This document shows, piece by piece, positions 4,593 through 31,141 of a stretch of DNA of 64,000 nucleotides. Under the pieces are notes generated by a model that ran no database searches, was not told the origin of the DNA, and was given only the letters and a program-made list of their open reading frames with translations. This DNA comes from Patescibacteria group bacterium. GTDB taxonomy: Bacteria > Patescibacteriota > Minisyncoccia > Phycocordibacterales > CSBR16-119. The DNA lies in contig JBPOJJ010000002.1 of NCBI GenBank assembly GCA_052033715.1, positions 94,408 to 158,407 on the forward strand. The letters run 5' to 3'. A program made the translations under genes and the position numbers. Within the stretch, counting starts at the first letter, position 1, and each line of letters begins with the position of its first letter.

Positions 4593-7500
4593 CTAACAAT
4601 TTCCATATTCGACCACGATAGCTGTAAATGGTTGAATGGTATATGTCTGCGTTCCGCTCGTTGATTGGCCATTAACTCTACAAGCGTTGGTTATTACTTG
4701 AGAGGTTGGAGATATAGTCGCGTTGTAGAAGATCTGCGGTGCCTGAGTTGCGGTGTACGTTCCATCAGTTGAGTTAACGTCTTCGTTTGAACTTGTTTTC
4801 CACTGGCCCAAAGTCCAATTGTTTGTTTGACCACTGAAGTTCTTCATCTGTTGAACTTTTGTTGTTCTGTATGGATTGGAATAATAATTGCTGTTTATGG
4901 TTCCAAAATCAGCTACCGCGCCTGTGCCATTACTATATGAGTGCAGGAAGTACAGTGGATTTTGATAAGAAGCTATTCCGTATATCTTGTTTCCAGTGAC
5001 TACGTCATTGTATTGTGGCCAGAAACATGGACTATTTGAGTCGGGTGTAGGACATCCGCCGGAAACAGTTCTATAGTTTGACCAGTCCGCAAAAGCAATT
5101 CCTGATCGATTGAAATCGTAAATTATATTGTTTCGTATTTTGTTGTCACGGAACAATGTATTGTGATCAACCCATATACCATCAGTTGCATTTATAGCGA
5201 TGTTTGAGTCGAGATCAAGATTGATAATAGGGCCTACTGTACCATCTCCAAAGTAGTAGGCCTTGTCTCTTGCTACGTACCCAACGTACAGTATTGGCTG
5301 AGAAGCCATGTTTGGAGAACCACCAGTTCCGGCATTTTGACCAGAACCGACACCGATATCTTTGACGATGTTTTTACTGATAGTCAGGCCGTTTGTGTTG
5401 TCAAAGGTGATTCCTGCGCCGTCGGTAAGCGTCTTCATCGCTCTTTCAACCAAGTTCTCGGTTATAGTACCCGACCCCGCTGCCCAGATTCCGGCATATC
5501 CTGTATCGCGAACAATGTTTCTCCTAGAAACAATATTACTTCCACCACCAATGTGAATTATTCCGGAATGTGTCATTTCTGAACTATACATTCTGTCTTC
5601 TACAGTAGAAACCCGTTCGATGACATTGCCCTCTATCAAGTGACCATTGCCTCCCTGAACAGATATACCAGTTACATTTAGATCATGGAGATAATTATTT
5701 CTCAAAGTATTTTTGTCAGATTCTGCAACACCATCGATTCCTGAATGGTAAACACCGTGGTAAGCATTTCTTATTTCTAGATTTTCTACTGTTATACCTT
5801 TTAGATTTGTTCCACTTTGGCTTCTTAGCCAAACGGCATAACCCGTCTGACCCTCGACGATAAGATTCCTAACTATTATATGTCCGGCGCTCGCGATGTA
5901 GACTCCGTCTGATTCAGAGGTCATTTCGACTGTTAAGGTGTTTGGGTTGGCATTGCCTGGGGCCCATAGGTACACAGTATTTGTCGCGGAGTCAAAATAC
6001 CATTCACCGGCAGTATCAAGTAATGATAATTTATTTCTCAAAATATAACCCCATGCCAGGTTGGTCCATTGTGATCCGTATTTCATGGCAGTGCCGGGAG
6101 TCGTGTGGTCATATCTTTGCAAATCTATTCTCGATCCAGAATTTCCAGTTATTTTTCCGATAGAAATAGACCAAGGTGATCCTCTCGTTACAACCTCTCC
6201 ATTGGTCAATGAATTCGAACCTTGGGCCGAAAGCCATGAATTGTCTGAATCTGTTATGAGATTGGCGCCTCTAGAGTTTGTGAAGTACCATCCTGTGTTT
6301 GGCTGACGAGCCTGTGTTTGATAAGCACTGTTTATGAACAGATATTTCGGCGTTGATGCTGGTGCAGAAGAAACTGTCGCTTTCCAGATATTGCCACTGT
6401 GTTGTGTCCAGTTTGTGACCAATACGTTACCGGAAATCACTGGCGCCGAACCTGCTCCATAAGCGTCAACTATGATCTTGGATGAGGCGGTACCGGACTT
6501 GGTTATCGCTAGACGACCTCTGTGTGATTGCTCCCTCTTGAAACAAATCATTGTTCCAGCGTTGATACTCGACATTGAAGAATTCACCTTACTAATTGTC
6601 TTCCAAGGAGTAGAGACTGATGTTCCGTTGTTTGAATCGTTACCACTTACCGCATCTACGTAAAAGATGGTTCCGCCGGAAGGATTTGTACAAGAAGTCG
6701 GGTTCGTCGTAAGAGATGGTCCGACAGCGCCATTGATTCCGTTCATCGTCTGCCCACCAGTTGGTGGTGGGGGTGTTGGGTCAGATGAAGTTGTTCCTGT
6801 TGTGGCAGATGACCAAGATGTACAGTTTGGAGCAGTAACACCGTCGCATGCTCGGACCTGGTATTCATACGAAGTTCCGGCGACAAGTCCGGTATTTGAA
6901 AATGATGTCGCTCCGCCACTATACACTTCTGCGAATGTTCCTGAAGGAAGAGTTCTTCTTTGAAGTTTGTAAGTAATTGGTGTTGTGGCGTCTGTTGCAG
7001 TGTTCCAAGATACTGTCAATGAAGTAGTCGTTGGTGAAGCGGTGGCTAAATTTGGTGTTCCGGCAGTCCAAACAGGATTCTCGTTGTCAATCAAGGGAGT
7101 GCCCCCGCCCGAGCCATTAACCGCTCTTTGGATTTGTGGAAGTGAAGAATTGTTTGTGTTTACCAGTCTGTAATACGGCGCTGTGGCGTTCGATAGTGTT
7201 ATGGTCTTGATCCCGAGTTTTCCATTTGGTGCAGTAATGCTTGTTTGACCAGACACATCTGTCCAAGATGTTCCGTTCGTTGAACTTTGCAATTTCCATG
7301 TTTCTCCTGGCTTGATGTGGGTTATGTTTATAGCCAAAATGTTATTGGAGAATGTAATCTGTGGATCTTTCCATGGGTTGGCTAGAGGCTCTCCGACGAA
7401 GTTTGTATTTCCATTCTTCTCGACAGAAGACCAGTATGATTGGAGAGCGGATGCACCAGTGTAATATTCTCTCCACAATTGTGTTGTTTTGGAAGATTTT

Positions 7501-10500
7501 CTAGCAACCCCAGATGAACTATCCCATGGCTCTTTTTGTGTGCCAGAACTTGCCGTTGCGCCAGCTTTCAACATTTCTGTTATTGACAGTTGAGCTCCCG
7601 TTCCTCCTGAAACTCCGTCTTGAGACAAAAAGCCACTGTTGCTTGTTGCATAATCAACGAGAGCACCTTTTAGGAAATTTAGAGTTGAAATATACGGCGG
7701 ACAAGCAAGAGCTGTATGGTAGCCCAAAACATCTGTTTTATTTTTCAAGAAACTTGGTTCGTATTGTGAACCACCTATATAACTTTGTGTTGAAGTACAA
7801 TTTCCTGGACTACCTCCGGCAGCATAATTCGATACCGTAGTGTGTTCCGTTGCTAAATTATTTTGATTGAACAATCCAGCGAGAGTTAGTATATTCGAAT
7901 GTCTTATCGGCGCTCTATTTGTATCGAATGTTGAAATTGAATAAATCTTACTTGTTGGATGTGTGTTATCAGCCTGTACACCCTGATCTACGAACTGTTT
8001 ACCTTCGTTATAGTTTCCTGAAGCAAAAGGCAACAAGAAAGCTGGGATGAGGTTATGAGTTTGTCGTGGAGTCAAAAATCCGGAAGAATTTTCAAAATAG
8101 GCATTTGTTGGCATGCTGCCAGAACTAAGCAACGCATCACCATCAACATATTGCCCTTTTGCAAATGCTACAACCAGAGAAACACATGGTTCTGTTCCAC
8201 TGCCGGTATTACAATTAGTGGTAGCGTTTCCAACCATGAAAGGATATCTCCACACAAGCATCGCGCCTTGAATGTCAGGAGAACCAAGACCGGCCGAAGT
8301 ATATGCAGAAGTTATCTGATTTAGAACATGAGCTCGCATGTTTGTTCCACCGAAACCTGTTTCGAAAGTGCTTCTTAGCATAATCCTGCCATTATTATCC
8401 ATCGGCGCGTTAAAACTAAGGGTTACTTTGTTTTGCGCAGGAATACCTCTTTGTTGTATATAGTAATCAGCTAGCTGACACGATTGGGAGTATTGTGAAT
8501 TGCACACAACGGCTATTTGATTTGGATTGAATGACCTTTGTGGAGTTGAAACTATTGGCGCCGAAGATGGAGGTGCGCTTGCAACGCTAAATGTAACACT
8601 TACGCTTGATGTCATCGGATTTCCAGCCGTATCTTGGCAGCGAACATATCTTGTATAAGATGTTCCGTCTGTCAAACCAAGGAGCGGATAGTTGTGAGAA
8701 GTCGATCCAGAGCCAGTAAAGGTGTTGGTCATGGAAGCGTAAGCAGTATCTGTTGTTGCCCACTTACAAGTTGCAGCTTCATTTGTCGTGGCTGTCATCG
8801 TAAATGTTGTTGTACCCGCGGAGAGAACCTGATTATTTGTCGGCGCGGTAATGTTAGCCGTTGGAGGAATTGTGTCAGTTGGTGGTGGAACGTATGAATC
8901 AATATTGTTTTCATTGACCCAACCATCAGTACCAGTTGCAAAGTCGACATACCAATAATTGATTCCGCCACTTATCCAAACTGGATTTATAGGTCCAGCC
9001 GAGCTGTTGGTTATCACGCCAACTGTACCAGCAACTTGATTTCCGGCATTACCAGAAGCGTCAGGTGTAACCTTGATGCTTGCTGTGGTATTTGTCTCAA
9101 CCTGGTTACCATTGGCAAAACTAGTTGAGAGTGTTGGAGCACTGACAGCATTTGAAACACCTGAAGTATTTCCAACGTTATCAACCGCGGTAATCGTATA
9201 GCTATAAGTTCCTGTTGATGTGACGCTGGTATCAACAAAAGTTGTTTGGTTTCCAACGTTTACTGTTGTGCCAGGATTTCTGGTGACATTGTAGTGATTA
9301 ACTCCTCCGGCATCTGTCGAAGCTGCCCAAGACAATCTAATCTCTCCTGCCGAACGATATGTTGAGGCTGCAGAAGTTGGATTGGTTGGAGGAGTTAGAT
9401 CGTCAAAGTTAGACAGGATGAATTGATTAACGACTGGTGTTCCAGCTGCGCCTGTACAAGTGGCGGCGGCATAAGGGGTGACGGTGAGGGTATATGCGCC
9501 CAAAATCTGAGTCGATGTTGGCCAAGAAGTATATGTCCCCGAAGCATCGCCATAAAGAGCAAATGGTGAAGAGCTTTCGCACTGAGTATAGGCGGTAAAT
9601 CCAGACGGCCCAGTTAGATCAAATTTGATACTTGCTGGAGCTGGTGTGCCTGGATTTGCTTTGATTGAGAAAGCTCCGCTAAGTGGTGCATATGTGGCGT
9701 TCGCCTGACTTCCAACGTTTAGCTGCTGACCAGAGGCGAGGGTGGACACAACTGTGCCGTTTATTTGAACAACCTGAAGAGAGGAAACGATTGTTGGTAT
9801 CGCTGTCGTTGTTGCTGTAACTGCAGATGATTGAGCAGAACAATTTTGCGTTGGCGCACTGTCGCAAGCAGAGATGGTGTATGAATAGAGTGTTCCAGCA
9901 ACCAAATCAAGATCCGTCATCGAAGTGCCTGAGATTGGAGAGCCAATGTAAGTACCATTTCGATAAATTCTATAAGTAACTGGAGAAGAAGCATCTGTCA
10001 CAGCATTCCAAGACAAAGCAACGGTTGTCGAAGTAACTGCGCCAACAGAAAGCGTTGGTACAGCTGGAGCGGTAGTATCGACTGGAGCGGCCACGCTAAA
10101 CTCACGACTTACACTTGTCGTCATTGTGTTTCCGACGGTGTCCTGGCAGCGTACGTATCGAGTGTATGATGTTCCGTTAACAAGACCCGTAAGCGACGCG
10201 TTGTGGCTAGTAGAACCAGCCCCAGCAAGTGTGTTGATCATGCTTGAGTAGGCAACGTCTGTTGTGTTCCATTTACATGTTGCCGCTTCGTTTGTTGTGA
10301 CCGACAAGGTTGTGCTTGTCGTACCAGCCGGCAGAACTTGACCCGCGGTTGGAGCAGTAATTGTGGCTGTTGGAGCAGTTGCATCCGACGGCGCTGCTGT
10401 CGTACCACTAACTGCGGATGATTGAGCAGAACAATTTGTGGTAATTGCTATATAGCAAGCCTGAACCTTGTAGTAATAAGTTACGTTTGGAGAAAGAGAC

Positions 10501-24228: not shown

Positions 24229-24496
24229 GGAAATATTTTAACATATCCAATGGGGACTCTGTCACGCATAAATTTCCTGACGGAAATTTTGCTTAAGCCC
24301 GTTTTTTAATTTGTGGTCACAAATAAGGACTCGCTCACGAGTTACTAATTCGCTACGCTTATAAGTACTCGCGAGCCCGCCTCGCAGTCGCTGGGGCGAC
24401 ACGGCTGCGACTTTCTCGTCCTGACAGAGGCCAAGCAGTTGGCCTCTTTCCCGGGCACAAAATAAAAAGACTGGCCAAAGCCAGCTTTCTATTTTG

Positions 24497-24578
24497 TGCC
24501 CGGGACAGGACTCGAACCTGCATGCCTTTCGGCGCTACCACCTCAAGGTAGTAAGTCTACCAGTTTCTCCACCCGGGC
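24497..24578 (-). tRNA. tRNA-Leu(GAG): tRNA-Leu (anticodon GAG), long variable arm
   Basis: Reverse complement GCCCGGGTGGAGAAACTGGTAGACTTACTACCTTGAGGTGGTAGCGCCGAAAGGCATGCAGGTTCGAGTCCTGTCCCGGGCA. Anticodon loop TTGAGGT. Confidence 0.75.
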
Positions 24579-29222: not shown

Positions 29223-29258
29223 TCTAGCAAGAAACTCTTAATTTAGACTCTAAATTTG

Positions 29259-29330
29259 TGCACCCAGAGGGATTCGAACCCCCAATAACGGTTCCGAAGA
29301 CCGTCGTGATATCCATTTCACCATGGGTGC
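29259..29330 (-). tRNA. tRNA-Arg(TCG): tRNA-Arg (anticodon TCG)
   Basis: Reverse complement GCACCCATGGTGAAATGGATATCACGACGGTCTTCGGAACCGTTATTGGGGGTTCGAATCCCTCTGGGTGCA. Anticodon loop CTTCGGA. Confidence 0.75.
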
Positions 29331-29490
29331 ATCACCTGTGCGAGTAAGGGTCGGTCACAACTCTTTTGCTCCGCAAAAGGTCGCGACCCCGCCTCGCCCG
29401 TCGCTATTGCGACATGGCTCTGGCTTTCGATTCCCCACGCGAGACACGCAGGTGTCTCGCTTTCACGCACAAAAAGCTTTTAGCTTTTTG

Positions 29491-29561
29491 TGCGAGTAAG
29501 GGGAATCGAACCCCTGCCGTCTGATTGGCAACCAGACGTTCTACCATTAAACTATACTCGC
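29491..29561 (-). tRNA. tRNA-Gly(GCC): tRNA-Gly (anticodon GCC)
   Basis: Reverse complement GCGAGTATAGTTTAATGGTAGAACGTCTGGTTGCCAATCAGACGGCAGGGGTTCGATTCCCCTTACTCGCA. Anticodon loop TTGCCAA. Confidence 0.8.
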
Positions 29562-29641: not shown

Positions 29642-30013
29642 CTATTTCCACCGGTATCCAGTTATGCGGTAAAGTCGGTATTTTAGCCTACTTGTTGATT
29701 CTAGTTTGGTCGAACCCAGAAGTTCATCAAAAACCTCGGGCTTGACCAGACAATCAACTAAACAAACTGTCTCCCCTGCGCACGTCCAGGTGCGAGAAAT
29801 CACTTCGGCAACACCTTGTCCAAGGTCACACGCGGAGATCTGGAAATAGTCCCCTTTGCTTATAACCTCGGGCCAGTTCTCTATTTCGACCTCCACATTC
29901 TCAGGCCGGTCAACTGTGCGAAAGTTTAGGATTGCTTTCATGTTCTGTGTTTTGCTAAACATTAACATCCGGCGTTTTATATAGCAACTATTGTCCCTTA
30001 TCCCCCTACCCAC
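29642..30013 (-). CDS. Hypothetical protein (likely starting at an internal Met, ~100 aa), moderately GC-rich
   Basis: 123 aa ORF. No family recognised. Lies between the tRNA cluster and a repeat-rich intergenic region. Confidence 0.35.
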   Translation of the reverse strand: MGRGIRDNSCYIKRRMLMFSKTQNMKAILNFRTVDRPENVEVEIENWPEVISKGDYFQISACDLGQGVAEVISRTWTCAGETVCLVDCLVKPEVFDELLGSTKLESTSRLKYRLYRITGYRWK

Positions 30014-30308
30014 ATGTTTATCCCCTTTTGTCTTTTAAAATCTAAATACACAAGGTGTTGTAAAATAATGCTTTTTTGACACTGGTCTGTGGATAACCCT
30101 GTTTATAACGTTGATAACTAGTAGTTTTTTACCCTAAAAATGTCCTTTATGAATTAAAAACGTTGACTTATAAGGGTTTTTACCATTTCACATGTAACGT
30201 TTCATGTGAAACGTATTTAAGGCACGTTTATAAGGGTTTTTAAACATCAAGTTGTTACGCATGTCCTGCCTGCCGGCAGGCAGGAACATTTACTTAGTTT
30301 CTGGTATT

Positions 30309-30719
30309 ATGTTATTCATGAAACAATTCACTTCCAAAACCCAGAAGTTGGGTGAAATTGGTGAGAAATTGGCCGTAATGTTTCTCATGAAACATGGATT
30401 TCAGGTTTTGGAGACCAATTACACGAAGAAATGTGGGGAAATAGACATTGTGGCCCAAAAGGGTAAAAATTTACACTTTATTGAGGTTAAAAGCGTTTCC
30501 CGTGTAACGTTAGACGATGTTTCATCAGAAACGTCTGGCTATAGGCCAGAAGAGAATATGCATCCGAAGAAAGTCGAGAGATTCGTCCGAACGGCTGATT
30601 ATTACCTTATGGAGAAGAATGTACCTGATACGATCGAATACCAGATCGATCTAGCTCTCGTCTACATAAACCCGATAAAACGCGCAGGGAAGGTAGTCCT
30701 TATGGAGCAGGTGGTTTAA
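30309..30719 (+). CDS. yraN: YraN/UPF0102-family endonuclease-like protein
   Basis: KLGEIGEKLAVMFLMKHGFQVLETNYTKKCGEIDIVAQKGKNLHFIEVKS matches the UPF0102 core. ORF-track start at 30252 reads through the GC palindrome and is rejected. ATG at 30309 or 30318. Confidence 0.75.
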   Translation: MLFMKQFTSKTQKLGEIGEKLAVMFLMKHGFQVLETNYTKKCGEIDIVAQKGKNLHFIEVKSVSRVTLDDVSSETSGYRPEENMHPKKVERFVRTADYYLMEKNVPDTIEYQIDLALVYINPIKRAGKVVLMEQVV

Positions 30720-30769: not shown

Positions 30770-30842
30770 CGGGGCGTGGTGTAACGGCTAACATGTCTGT
30801 TTTGGGAACAGATGACTCCGGGTTCGAATCCCGGCGCCCCGA
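30770..30842 (+). tRNA. tRNA-Pro(TGG): tRNA-Pro (anticodon TGG)
   Basis: CGGGGCGTGGTGTAACGGCTAACATGTCTGTTTTGGGAACAGATGACTCCGGGTTCGAATCCCGGCGCCCCGA. 7-bp acceptor stem pairs, anticodon loop TTTGGGA. Confidence 0.8.
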
Positions 30843-31046
30843 CAAGGAAGCGAGCGAGCAAACTGCTTTGCTCGCGTCCGGGATTCGAAAGGCTTTTCCG
30901 TACGAGCGAAGCGAGGTGGAAAAGCACCCGCGGCGGTAGGCCGAGAATCCATAAGAGCGCCCCGACTCAGGAAATCAGAAAAACAGATTCTCCGGAGCCT
31001 AAATGGCTCCGCGACCTGAAAGGAGATGACTTTAGTAATAATAATT

Positions 31047-31117
31047 GCGGGATTAGTTTATCGGTAAAACAACAGTTTTCCAAACTGTGGTGAGGAGTTC
31101 GACTCTCCTATCCCGCA
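31047..31117 (+). tRNA. tRNA-Gly(TCC): tRNA-Gly (anticodon TCC)
   Basis: GCGGGATTAGTTTATCGGTAAAACAACAGTTTTCCAAACTGTGGTGAGGAGTTCGACTCTCCTATCCCGCA. Anticodon stem ACAGT/ACTGT, loop TTTCCAA. Confidence 0.75.
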
Positions 31118-31141
31118 CAAAAAATTTGATATACTCTCTTT

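Follow-up and report, generated by a model that had tools for sequence, protein, structure and literature searches.

The question raised by this locus is what fills the 159 nucleotides (nt) that separate tRNA-Gly(GCC) from tRNA-Arg(TCG) on the minus strand in a Patescibacteria group bacterium (assembly GCA_052033715.1, contig JBPOJJ010000002.1, positions 94,408 to 158,407; this whole 64,000-nt stretch is the window referred to below). An earlier reading of the letters alone, the original prediction, had described two hairpins in this spacer, together with an 11-nt inverted copy of the tRNA T-arm and a 14-nt direct repeat of the tRNA 3' end, and had taken a similar arrangement after tRNA-Pro as a sign of a recurring element rather than of chance. 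Both hairpins, the inverted copy and the repeat are indeed present, and the element recurs: the window holds three copies and at least 119 genome stretches carry it, it is associated with more than 30 tRNA species, and its core helices covary. The family is real and widespread, with a covarying fold, filled and empty alleles and tandem arrays, and is apparently uncatalogued. With a probability of roughly 0.55, we favour reading it as a mobile insertion element of Patescibacteria and Elusimicrobia that codes for no protein, carries a structure and has the 3' ends of tRNA and transfer-messenger RNA (tmRNA) genes as its target. On this reading it belongs to a known kind of mobile DNA, which enters tRNA 3' ends and restores the gene.

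The predicted features of the Gly module are all found at their stated places. In what follows X is the part of the tRNA running from the T-loop to the 3' end, X1 is its copy within the gene, X2 the second direct copy, and x-bar the antisense copy standing between them (coordinates are given in Table 1). The spacer hairpin h1, which as RNA reads GCAC-AAAAAGC-UAAAA-GCUUUUU-GUGC, includes the last 4 nt of tRNA-Gly, and the imperfect palindrome around it, on which the anti-acceptor segment is based, reaches 19 nt per arm, with 17 of 19 positions complementary. The second hairpin (hp2) sits at the exact boundary between the acceptor and T-stem parts of the antisense copy. At 29426-29436 on the minus strand, GGGGAATCGAA is the exact 11-nt reverse complement of the T-loop and 3' T-stem strand of tRNA-Gly. 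The 14-nt sequence TGTGCGAGTAAGGG, the last 14 nt of X2, occurs exactly twice, at 29337-29350 and at 29489-29502. The spacer alone folds 6.5 standard deviations better than shuffles. Chance was controlled for with 2000 dinucleotide shuffles of each 400-nt tRNA trailer: a direct repeat of at least 14 nt appeared in none of the Gly shuffles and an inverted copy of at least 11 nt in 7, the direct and inverted counts being 31 and 2 for the Pro trailer and 166 and 3 for the Leu trailer, and repeat and inverted copy occurred together in 0/2000 shuffles for each of the three. On the favoured reading, 29337-29489 is an old, partly decayed copy of the element family.

When all tRNAs of the window were checked for direct and inverted copies of their own 3' ends, modules were found after tRNA-Gly(GCC), tRNA-Leu(GAG) and tRNA-Pro(TGG), the first two being clear copies and the last a relic. 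The Leu module (24310-24495, minus strand), which is absent from the original prediction, is a better second copy than the Pro module. Common to the three is the order spacer hairpin, anti-acceptor, CUGC-loop hairpin, GU plus T-arm complement, and AAAG; their hp2 stems differ in sequence yet stay paired (they covary), and the T-stem part of the antisense segment varies with the tRNA (GGGG in Gly, CCGGG in Pro and CAGG in Leu). The Gly and Leu modules also have in common the core ...GCC..UGUCGC-nnnn-GCGAC..GCGAGGCGGGnUCGCGA...GUGAS, where S is C in Gly and G in Leu. A covariance model built from copies in other genomes matches the Gly module with 65.9 bits (E ~1e-15) and the Leu module (24320-24428) with 52.2 bits (E 7.5e-12); nothing else in the window rises above noise, and the Pro module is undetected. 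The suggestion that Gly and Pro follow the same design therefore holds for the 5' half of the module but not for the 3' half of the core, which Pro lacks: what it retains is the CUGC-loop hairpin, the GT, the inverted T-arm (CCGGGAUUCGAA at 30878-30889, an exact 12-nt inverted copy), the AAAG and a P2-like hairpin, with P3 gone, along with a 10-nt direct repeat (GCGCCCCGAC at 30834 and 30957). The Pro module looks like a degraded relic of the family.

The size of the family was assessed by scanning one genome per species (GTDB) with the exact 22-base core pattern GAGGCGGGGTCGCG-N(4-34)-GTGACCGA, which yielded the at least 119 genome stretches mentioned above. Among the matches listed, almost all are from Patescibacteria (Paceibacteria, Saccharibacteria, Microgenomates, Gracilibacteria, WWE3 and Berkelbacteria) or Elusimicrobia, and two GC-rich matches (Nocardioidaceae and Gemmatimonadales) look like chance. 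The covariance search that had been advised gave 126 and 31 matches in the fetched loci. A same-strand tRNA lies 44-321 nt upstream in 83 of the 125 matches listed, more than 30 anticodon species being represented; among the matches listed, GUGAC is always followed by CGAnUCC..., that is, by the tRNA from T-loop position 56 to its end, and about 45 of them have an exact 17-30-nt repeat of the upstream tRNA that starts at the CGA of the T-loop. Elements are arrayed in tandem at loci L083, L019 and L052 (loci are cited by number), and longer repeats derive from tandem arrays (these three and L009). Copies are also found behind tmRNA (L054, L078) and, more rarely, at the 3' end of rpsI, at UGGUCGAAACGCUAA (L047, L070), where x-bar and X2 match rpsI, and, in L030, at the end of another protein-coding gene, which we read as topA-like, with a repeat of ~60 nt. 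The duplication measures 17-30 nt (~60-110 nt in L030 and L032) and always extends to the end of the target gene, the element itself being ~110-170 nt long, and three or four copies can occur within 8 kb of one tRNA cluster. Core identity is independent of tRNA type (mean 0.64 for the same tRNA vs 0.63 for different tRNAs), on which ground tRNA-specific lineages were rejected.

A second configuration has the core inside the T-loop of a tRNA pseudogene (L042, ~130-330; L100, 7600-7750; L097, 3090-3260), in the order tRNA 5' part, short compensated hairpin, core and truncated T-arm palindrome, with an intact copy of the same tRNA downstream; in L042 and L100 the core lies within a tRNA-Lys pseudogene and an intact tRNA-Lys then follows. 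There is also a subclass with an extra small hairpin, for example AGCGG-UAAU-CCGCG (L044, L023, L054, L058, L060 and L077, just after GTGACCGAA). This hairpin is inserted between the post-core CGAA and the remainder of the duplicated tRNA 3' end, which suggests that the CGA following GUGAC belongs to the core and not to the target copy.

What the copies have in common is above all a fold. A structure alignment of 39 diverse copies supports three helices at a junction: P1, formed by x-bar and X; P2, with the consensus GCC-GGA-(variable hairpin)-GA-GGC; and P3, with the consensus GGUCGCGnn-(variable hairpin)-bulged A-nnYGUGACC, the bulged A (29362 in the Gly module) being invariant across this 39-sequence seed alignment. 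Paired cells amount to 91.4%, against 72% in column shuffles and 35-45% with slid partners, double-sided changes affect 254 cells where 82 are expected, and the covariation score of 0.494 (vs 0.152) was matched by none of 500 shuffles. Two P3 G-U pairs are kept in nearly all of the 126 model matches, and in about one fifth of copies (the GAGAA class) a tandem G-A takes the place of the inner U-A and C-G pairs of P1; because of the conserved P3 G-U pairs and this alternative tandem G-A form, the fold is assigned to the tRNA-sense strand. The stretch common to copies with 90-95% identical cores is only ~70 nt long, from (U/G)(C/A)GAA-AGCCGGAG to GUGAC-CGA. Outside it, such copies from different genomes have different spacer hairpins and a different x-bar and X, the latter two tracking the local target.

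Presence and absence of the element were compared at syntenic loci of relatives whose CCA-adding enzymes are 84-92% identical. Besides the Gly(GCC) element, L001, L128 and L129 have one after tRNA-Arg that is bounded by a perfect 22-nt repeat (CGAATCCCTCTGGGTGCACAAA); the tRNA-Arg site is empty in the window and in L125. In L003 an element follows tRNA-Gly(TCC), with a perfect 19-nt repeat and then the native flank CGCTTAAAAGCG, the very flank that directly follows tRNA-Gly(TCC) at the empty site of L001; this site is also empty in L005, where the flank differs. L003 is filled at Arg and Gly(GCC) as well, its core subtype at Arg differing from that of L001, and L005 has no element at any of the four tRNAs compared. 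L125 is the closest relative, with a CCA-adding enzyme 92% identical, and has no element between Gly(GCC) and Arg. The filled and empty alleles are clean and not alignment noise, and turnover is rapid.

Other differences were noted at the same loci. At 1209-1310 of L125 the Gly(GCC)-Arg spacer contains an unrelated, GC-rich hairpin of 78 nt (CACAAACCCCCG...CGGGGGTTTGTG); the sequence after it, AAAAAGCTTTTTGCTTTTT, resembles the h1 of the window spacer. In the tRNA comparison, which spans 29258-29561 and 30770-31118 of the window, Gly(GCC) and Arg keep the same order beside the cca gene and are on the opposite strand in L003 and L005 relative to the window, and the window likewise has Pro and Gly(TCC) in the orientation opposite to that of L001, L003 and L005. 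These look like in-place flips of single tRNAs and not a simple block inversion, since a block inversion would swap the order too.

The integrated layout is tRNA (X1), spacer hairpin, x-bar, ~70-nt core (P2/P3, ending in GUGAC), X2 and native flank, where x-bar is an antisense copy of 12-22 nt of X, optionally split by the CUGC-loop hairpin at the acceptor/T-stem boundary. In most members h1 is an A-tract/GC-stem/T-tract hairpin resembling a terminator; a test for a GC-rich stem followed by a T-run flagged the Leu h1, many members are recognizable by eye, and the Gly h1, whose stem is AT-rich, was not flagged. The hp2 hairpin (consensus loop region CAAACUGCUUUG) is optional, being found in 30 of 119 among the matches listed, and wherever it was inspected, it divides the antisense copy at precisely the acceptor/T-stem boundary, 13-14 nt ahead of AGCC. 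X1 and X2 differ at 149 sites; x-bar is complementary to X1 at 101 of them and to X2 at 18, so x-bar and core are retained and X2 can decay freely. One deletion in X2 is common to the window and L001, but x-bar there still complements the tRNA perfectly, and in the pseudo-tRNA copies of L042 and L100 the x-bar hairpin is maintained via compensatory changes. This persistence of x-bar and core could result from selection or from quasi-palindrome correction. An origin of h1 from fold-back copying of the native flank was also considered and discarded, as the left arm of h1 mismatches the flank in two clean filled/empty comparisons.

Since X is duplicated, the tRNA gene is left intact and gains a new terminator, and for these two reasons insertion costs the host little. 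The active form of the element would be a folded single strand, either RNA or single-stranded DNA, in the shape of a Y, with x-bar paired to X as its stem and P2 and P3 as its arms. The putative single-stranded intermediate, X-spacer-x-bar-core, may be pictured as a rod with X and x-bar paired, the spacer hairpin capping one end and the P2/P3 fork at the other. We propose that it crosses over with the tRNA gene inside X, because a crossover at this place would yield the observed order tRNA(X1)-spacer-x-bar-core-X2-native flank. The chemistry could be provided by a factor encoded elsewhere (a recombinase or a nuclease), or by host recombination after DNA uptake, and X and x-bar would be copied from, or corrected against, the adjoining target. 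Conservation of sequence between species stops 0-4 nt past the discriminator, at the point where the repeat ends as well; a repeat ending there would permit spread between genomes via homologous recombination after DNA uptake.

Several observations weigh against a mobile element. The fetched loci and the neighbouring ORFs (open reading frames) yielded neither a transposition intermediate nor a trans-acting enzyme or an autonomous relative, for which reason the mechanism is inferred only. The h1 hairpin differs completely among copies with near-identical cores and is not native flank, and the x-bar of the fresh L001 Arg insertion has one mismatch to its target, so that x-bar is not always a perfect target copy. 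The tRNA-independent similarity of the cores could reflect frequent retargeting or merely strong constraint on the core, and presence and absence could in part be losses by X1-X2 recombination rather than gains. Finally, conservation across phyla and the exact placement of hp2 would equally fit a functional tRNA-like RNA. A bolder version of the mobile element, which we put forward only tentatively, is that the core, as a small structured RNA or a folded single-stranded DNA, is sufficient in itself: it would mimic the acceptor/T-arm half of the adjoining tRNA and spread without a protein of its own. Spreading might rely on strand transfer of the ribozyme type at the T-loop or on tRNA-processing or recombination enzymes that it hijacks, and the 3' end of each new target would be copied into the stem of the element at each insertion.

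Searches for an associated protein gave the following picture. There is no ORF inside the elements, and no recombinase, transposase or reverse transcriptase recurs among the 620 ORFs within 2.5 kb of copies in the fetched loci; the recurrent neighbours are housekeeping genes (translational GTPase, CCA-adding enzyme, YraN and HU), and they recur because of synteny. The original prediction had pointed to integrases using tRNA-Gly or tRNA-Pro att sites, an idea that finds no support in elements of 110-170 nt without an ORF and with no recombinase recurring nearby. Among 2.9 million viral contigs the core pattern has 0 matches, blastn with the Gly module finds nothing in phage or plasmid collections, and no cognate autonomous transposase element was seen in ~0.9 Mb of fetched loci. 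In L032, ~2.4 kb with small ORFs only (5154-7600) lie between tRNA-Ala(TGC) and a family element, among them an ORF of 183 amino acids (aa) that looks hydrophobic and a Cys-rich one of 110 aa. This insert is bounded by a ~110-nt direct repeat that comprises the tRNA end, its terminator and a promoter-like stretch, and it contains no integrase-sized ORF, as judged by ORF size and not by domain search. Given the small ORFs and the ~110-nt repeat, it was rejected as an ORF-carrying autonomous version of the element and looks like a separate insertion.

Comparison with known RNAs was similarly negative. The three window modules and the best-scoring member have no match in Rfam 15, either at gathering score or at E up to 10; a weak match to the Brucella small RNA (sRNA) CII26, with 21 bits against a gathering score of 218, was dropped, as most of it rested on the terminator hairpin. 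Full-text literature searches turned up no account of an element of this kind; the nearest paper deals with anticodon-loop group I introns of Patescibacteria tRNAs and reports no group II introns in the phylum (PMC13011429). When upstream sequence is joined to X2 in silico, copies without an upstream tRNA never give one; taking out the element restores a tRNA only if an intact one is already present upstream, and an intact tRNA precedes the element in class I copies. An obligatory T-loop intron was rejected, because removal never rescues a broken tRNA.

How else, then, might the family be explained? One could see in it a functional tRNA-like small RNA gene or a cis-acting trailer element, although we consider this unlikely. 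After read-through, x-bar and X2 would form an acceptor/T-stem minihelix in which the core takes the place of the T-loop and hp2 that of the D and anticodon arms, and RNase P, RNase Z and the CCA-adding enzyme could trim it to a discrete stable RNA; alternatively, x-bar might pair with the tRNA's own 3' half and modulate its maturation. The position of hp2 at the acceptor/T-stem boundary, at a constant 13-14 nt from AGCC, agrees with such a role, as do the conserved G-U pairs and tandem G-A typical of folded RNA, the strong covariation of the core and its conservation across phyla, and the complementarity of x-bar to the tRNA held while X2 decays. Terminator-less copies (for example L088 Arg) would give a single transcript of tRNA and element, and the fold predicted for L088 pairs the tRNA 5' T-stem strand with X2. 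Most copies, however, have a terminator-like hairpin between tRNA and core, with no room for a promoter of their own; the same tRNA occurs with or without the element in close relatives, which makes the element dispensable; many copies are visibly decayed, such as the Pro relic in the window; and tandem arrays and copies at the ends of protein genes better fit a selfish element. The terminator that usually stands between tRNA and core also counts against a new small ribozyme-type mobile intron of the tRNA T-loop with a spare 3' exon, which strikes us as quite improbable. Here x-bar would be an internal guide docking X1 or X2, the core would catalyse cleavage or ligation at U55|C56 and at GUGAC|C56', and the excised X-spacer-x-bar-core would reverse-splice into a matching tRNA and return to DNA via reverse transcription and recombination. 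The same CGA follows both junctions, the three-way-junction core is highly conserved and has its seed-invariant bulged A 8 nt from the 3' junction, the core is inside the T-loop in some pseudo-tRNA copies (L042, L100, L097), and the predicted excised form would have the exact topology for regenerating the integrated arrangement. Yet group II introns, an obvious source of reverse transcriptase, are reported to be absent from Patescibacteria (PMC13011429), Rfam 15 has no ribozyme or intron model that matches, and splicing is never required, an intact upstream tRNA being present wherever the 5' part and X2 rebuilt a tRNA.

Two further explanations were weighed. Duplication of a tRNA 3' end from the T-loop on is the classic signature of integration into tRNA genes, and the direct repeats of the family fit it; they could accordingly be seen as attL and attR of integrase-mediated islands or prophages at tRNA 3' ends, with the interior as a deletion remnant, and the 2.4 kb of small ORFs between tRNA-Ala and the element in L032, with its ~110-nt repeat, could be cited in favour. 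Hundreds of copies nevertheless share boundaries, a size of 110-170 nt and covarying hairpins, which random deletion remnants would not; no integrase is found in or near any copy of the fetched loci, L032 included; and both the viral contigs and the phage and plasmid records are devoid of matches to the core pattern and the Gly module, respectively. Such an origin is thus largely refuted and very improbable. The second explanation, debris of local tRNA-gene rearrangements (pseudogene fragments and fold-back duplications) without any defined element, can draw on the highly rearranged state of the region among relatives, with tRNAs flipped in place and other partial duplications of tRNA-Pro, but it is hardly credible: a ~70-nt core unrelated to tRNA recurs in more than 100 species of two phyla with compensatory changes, the covariance model scores the window copies at E 1e-15 and 7e-12, and it is this family-wide conservation that refutes it.

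A mobile element targeting tRNA 3' ends can be set beside several known systems. Like prophages and islands with tyrosine integrases, the family enters the 3' part of tRNA and tmRNA genes, rebuilds the gene, leaves a direct repeat from the T-loop onward and can form tandem arrays at one tRNA. Unlike these kilobase-sized elements it measures 110-170 nt and has neither integrase nor ORF, it has an inverted copy of its target, and the compensatory changes of its core imply a folded single strand and not double-stranded arm sites. Integron attC sites and the forked attP(+) of CTX phage, both used by single-strand recombination systems (XerCD in the case of the phage), are imperfect hairpins of ~60-150 nt in which structure is conserved more than sequence and extrahelical bases are conserved; correspondingly, P3 covaries and its bulged A is invariant in the seed alignment. 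A hairpin stem mimicking a double-stranded target would explain the pairing of x-bar and X, and single-strand exchange followed by replication would yield the order X-spacer-x-bar-core-X. The boxes of attC are R'' (RYYYAAC) and R' (GTTRRRY), an alternative being dif-like XerC/XerD arms, and the family boxes GGUCGCG and YGUGACC fit neither consensus. Unlike attC and attP(+), moreover, the family has a target-derived stem that differs per tRNA and three helices rather than one, and no IntI or Xer partner was identified for it.

The family also resembles miniature inverted-repeat transposable elements (MITEs), repetitive extragenic palindromes and the mosaic elements built from them (REP/BIME), and Rickettsia palindromic elements, in being small, non-coding, hairpin-forming, multi-copy and presumably mobilised in trans, and in its tolerated insertion beside or inside RNA genes. 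It differs in its duplication, which is of 17-22 nt or more and restores the gene, against a fixed 2-10 bp, and in its strict specificity for tRNA-like targets. No element-specific terminal inverted repeats are common to all copies, x-bar/X differing per tRNA and copying the target, no fixed short target-site duplication is found in the family, and we know of no related autonomous transposon. With the anticodon-loop introns of Patescibacteria tRNAs it has in common a structured RNA without protein, the phylum and a guide-like segment complementary to the exon, but those introns interrupt the gene and need splicing, whereas the family follows a complete tRNA, has a core of ~70 nt as opposed to at least 200 nt and matches no Rfam intron model. 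The bridge RNA of IS110 and the omega RNA of IS200/IS605 are likewise structured non-coding RNAs of 100-200 nt with segments complementary or identical to the target at the boundary; here the differences are that no recombinase or TnpB gene adjoins the family copies and that the guide-like segments of the family are 12-22 nt long and represent one contiguous target stretch in both orientations.

The features of the three modules in the window are collected in Table 1. The genes near the Gly module are those for RNase Y, HU, YraN and the CCA-adding enzyme. Judged by homologues of the last of these, the window belongs to Patescibacteria, class Paceibacteria.

Table 1. Coordinates of the Gly, Leu and Pro modules and their tRNA genes in the window
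Feature	Position	Strand	Remarks
tRNA-Gly(GCC), target gene; part from T-loop to 3' end = X1	29490-29561	minus	ARAGORN; Rfam tRNA 73.6 bits
tRNA-Arg(TCG)	29258-29330	minus	Next tRNA after tRNA-Gly(GCC)
Gly spacer hairpin h1, GCACAAAAAGC-TTTTA-GCTTTTTGTGC, 11-bp stem	29467-29493	minus	
Gly anti-acceptor segment GUGCGUGAAAG	29460-29470	minus	Imperfect complement of tRNA 3' acceptor strand and discriminator
Gly hairpin hp2, GCGAGACAC-GCAG-GTGTCTCGC, 9-bp stem, CUGC loop on sense strand	29439-29460	minus	
Gly antisense T-arm segment GU-GGGGAAUCGAA	29426-29438	minus	Final 11 nt exactly complementary to tRNA positions 54-64
Gly core helix P2, GCC-AGA-(variable hairpin)-GA-GGC	29391-29424	minus	Covariance model alignment
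Gly core helix P3, GGUCGCGAC-(variable hairpin)-A-GUUGUGACC	29353-29388	minus	Conserved G-U pairs; ends at junction GUGAC|CGA
Gly X2, CGA-CCCUUACUCGCACA, second direct copy of tRNA 3' end, partly decayed	29337-29353	minus	
tRNA-Leu(GAG), target gene of second copy	24496-24578	minus	ARAGORN, Rfam
Leu h1, bidirectional terminator-like hairpin	24459-24495	minus	Flagged terminator-like on both strands
Leu anti-acceptor GUGCCCGGGA, hp2 and antisense T-arm GUCAGGACGAGAA	24413-24458	minus	Anti-acceptor 10/10 complementary; T-arm of GAGAA class
Leu hp2, CUGC loop	24426-24447	minus	
Leu core (P2 24379-24411, P3 24333-24376)	24333-24411	minus	Covariance model
Leu X2, decayed direct copy of tRNA-Leu 3' end (CGAGUCCUUAUUUGUGACCACAAA)	24310-24333	minus	
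tRNA-Pro(TGG), target gene of degraded third copy	30770-30843	plus	ARAGORN, Rfam
Pro relic: hp2 with CUGC loop (30850-30877), antisense T-arm (30878-30889), P2-like hairpin (30891-30925)	30850-30925	plus	
Pro relic: decayed direct copy of tRNA-Pro 3' end (GAGAAUCC...GCGCCCCGAC)	30943-30966	plus	Last 10 nt exact repeat

A second kind of small insert, of ~60 nt, is found after tRNA-Pro in the window (30967-31031), in L003 (7558-7648) and in L001 (8391-8485). It contains the hairpin CUCCGGAGCCUAAAUGGCUCCG (30990-31011 in the window) and is bounded in L003 by an exact 29-nt repeat of the 3' part of tRNA-Pro (GACTCCGGGTTCGAATCCCGGCGCCCCGAC), of which the window keeps just the first 9 nt (GAGATGACT, 31023-31031); it may represent another family that duplicates tRNA 3' ends. 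The intergenic region at 29950-30530 of the window, between a small ORF and yraN, has three 34-nt repeats (TTATAAGGGTTTTTACC...) at 30168, 30228 and 30478 and several palindromes of the GTTTCATGTGAAAC type. At 30088-30096 it also has a DnaA box, the only perfect one there. A replication origin (oriC) beside the module is not supported, the number of DnaA boxes across the window being not above chance.

Patescibacteria have some of the smallest bacterial genomes and nonetheless carry multiple copies of this family beside essential tRNA genes. If the family is mobile, it has found a harmless, protein-less way of entering an essential gene, bringing along a spare 3' end and a terminator, and its movement would account for part of the rapid rearrangement around tRNA clusters in Patescibacteria genomes. 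For annotators it is a new family to mask or name, not included in Rfam 15. It is also a compact, naturally retargetable structured module, and as such a candidate for a ribozyme, for tRNA mimicry or for structure-guided recombination. Should its core prove to be a functional RNA, few uncharacterised RNAs of the candidate phyla radiation would be as widespread.

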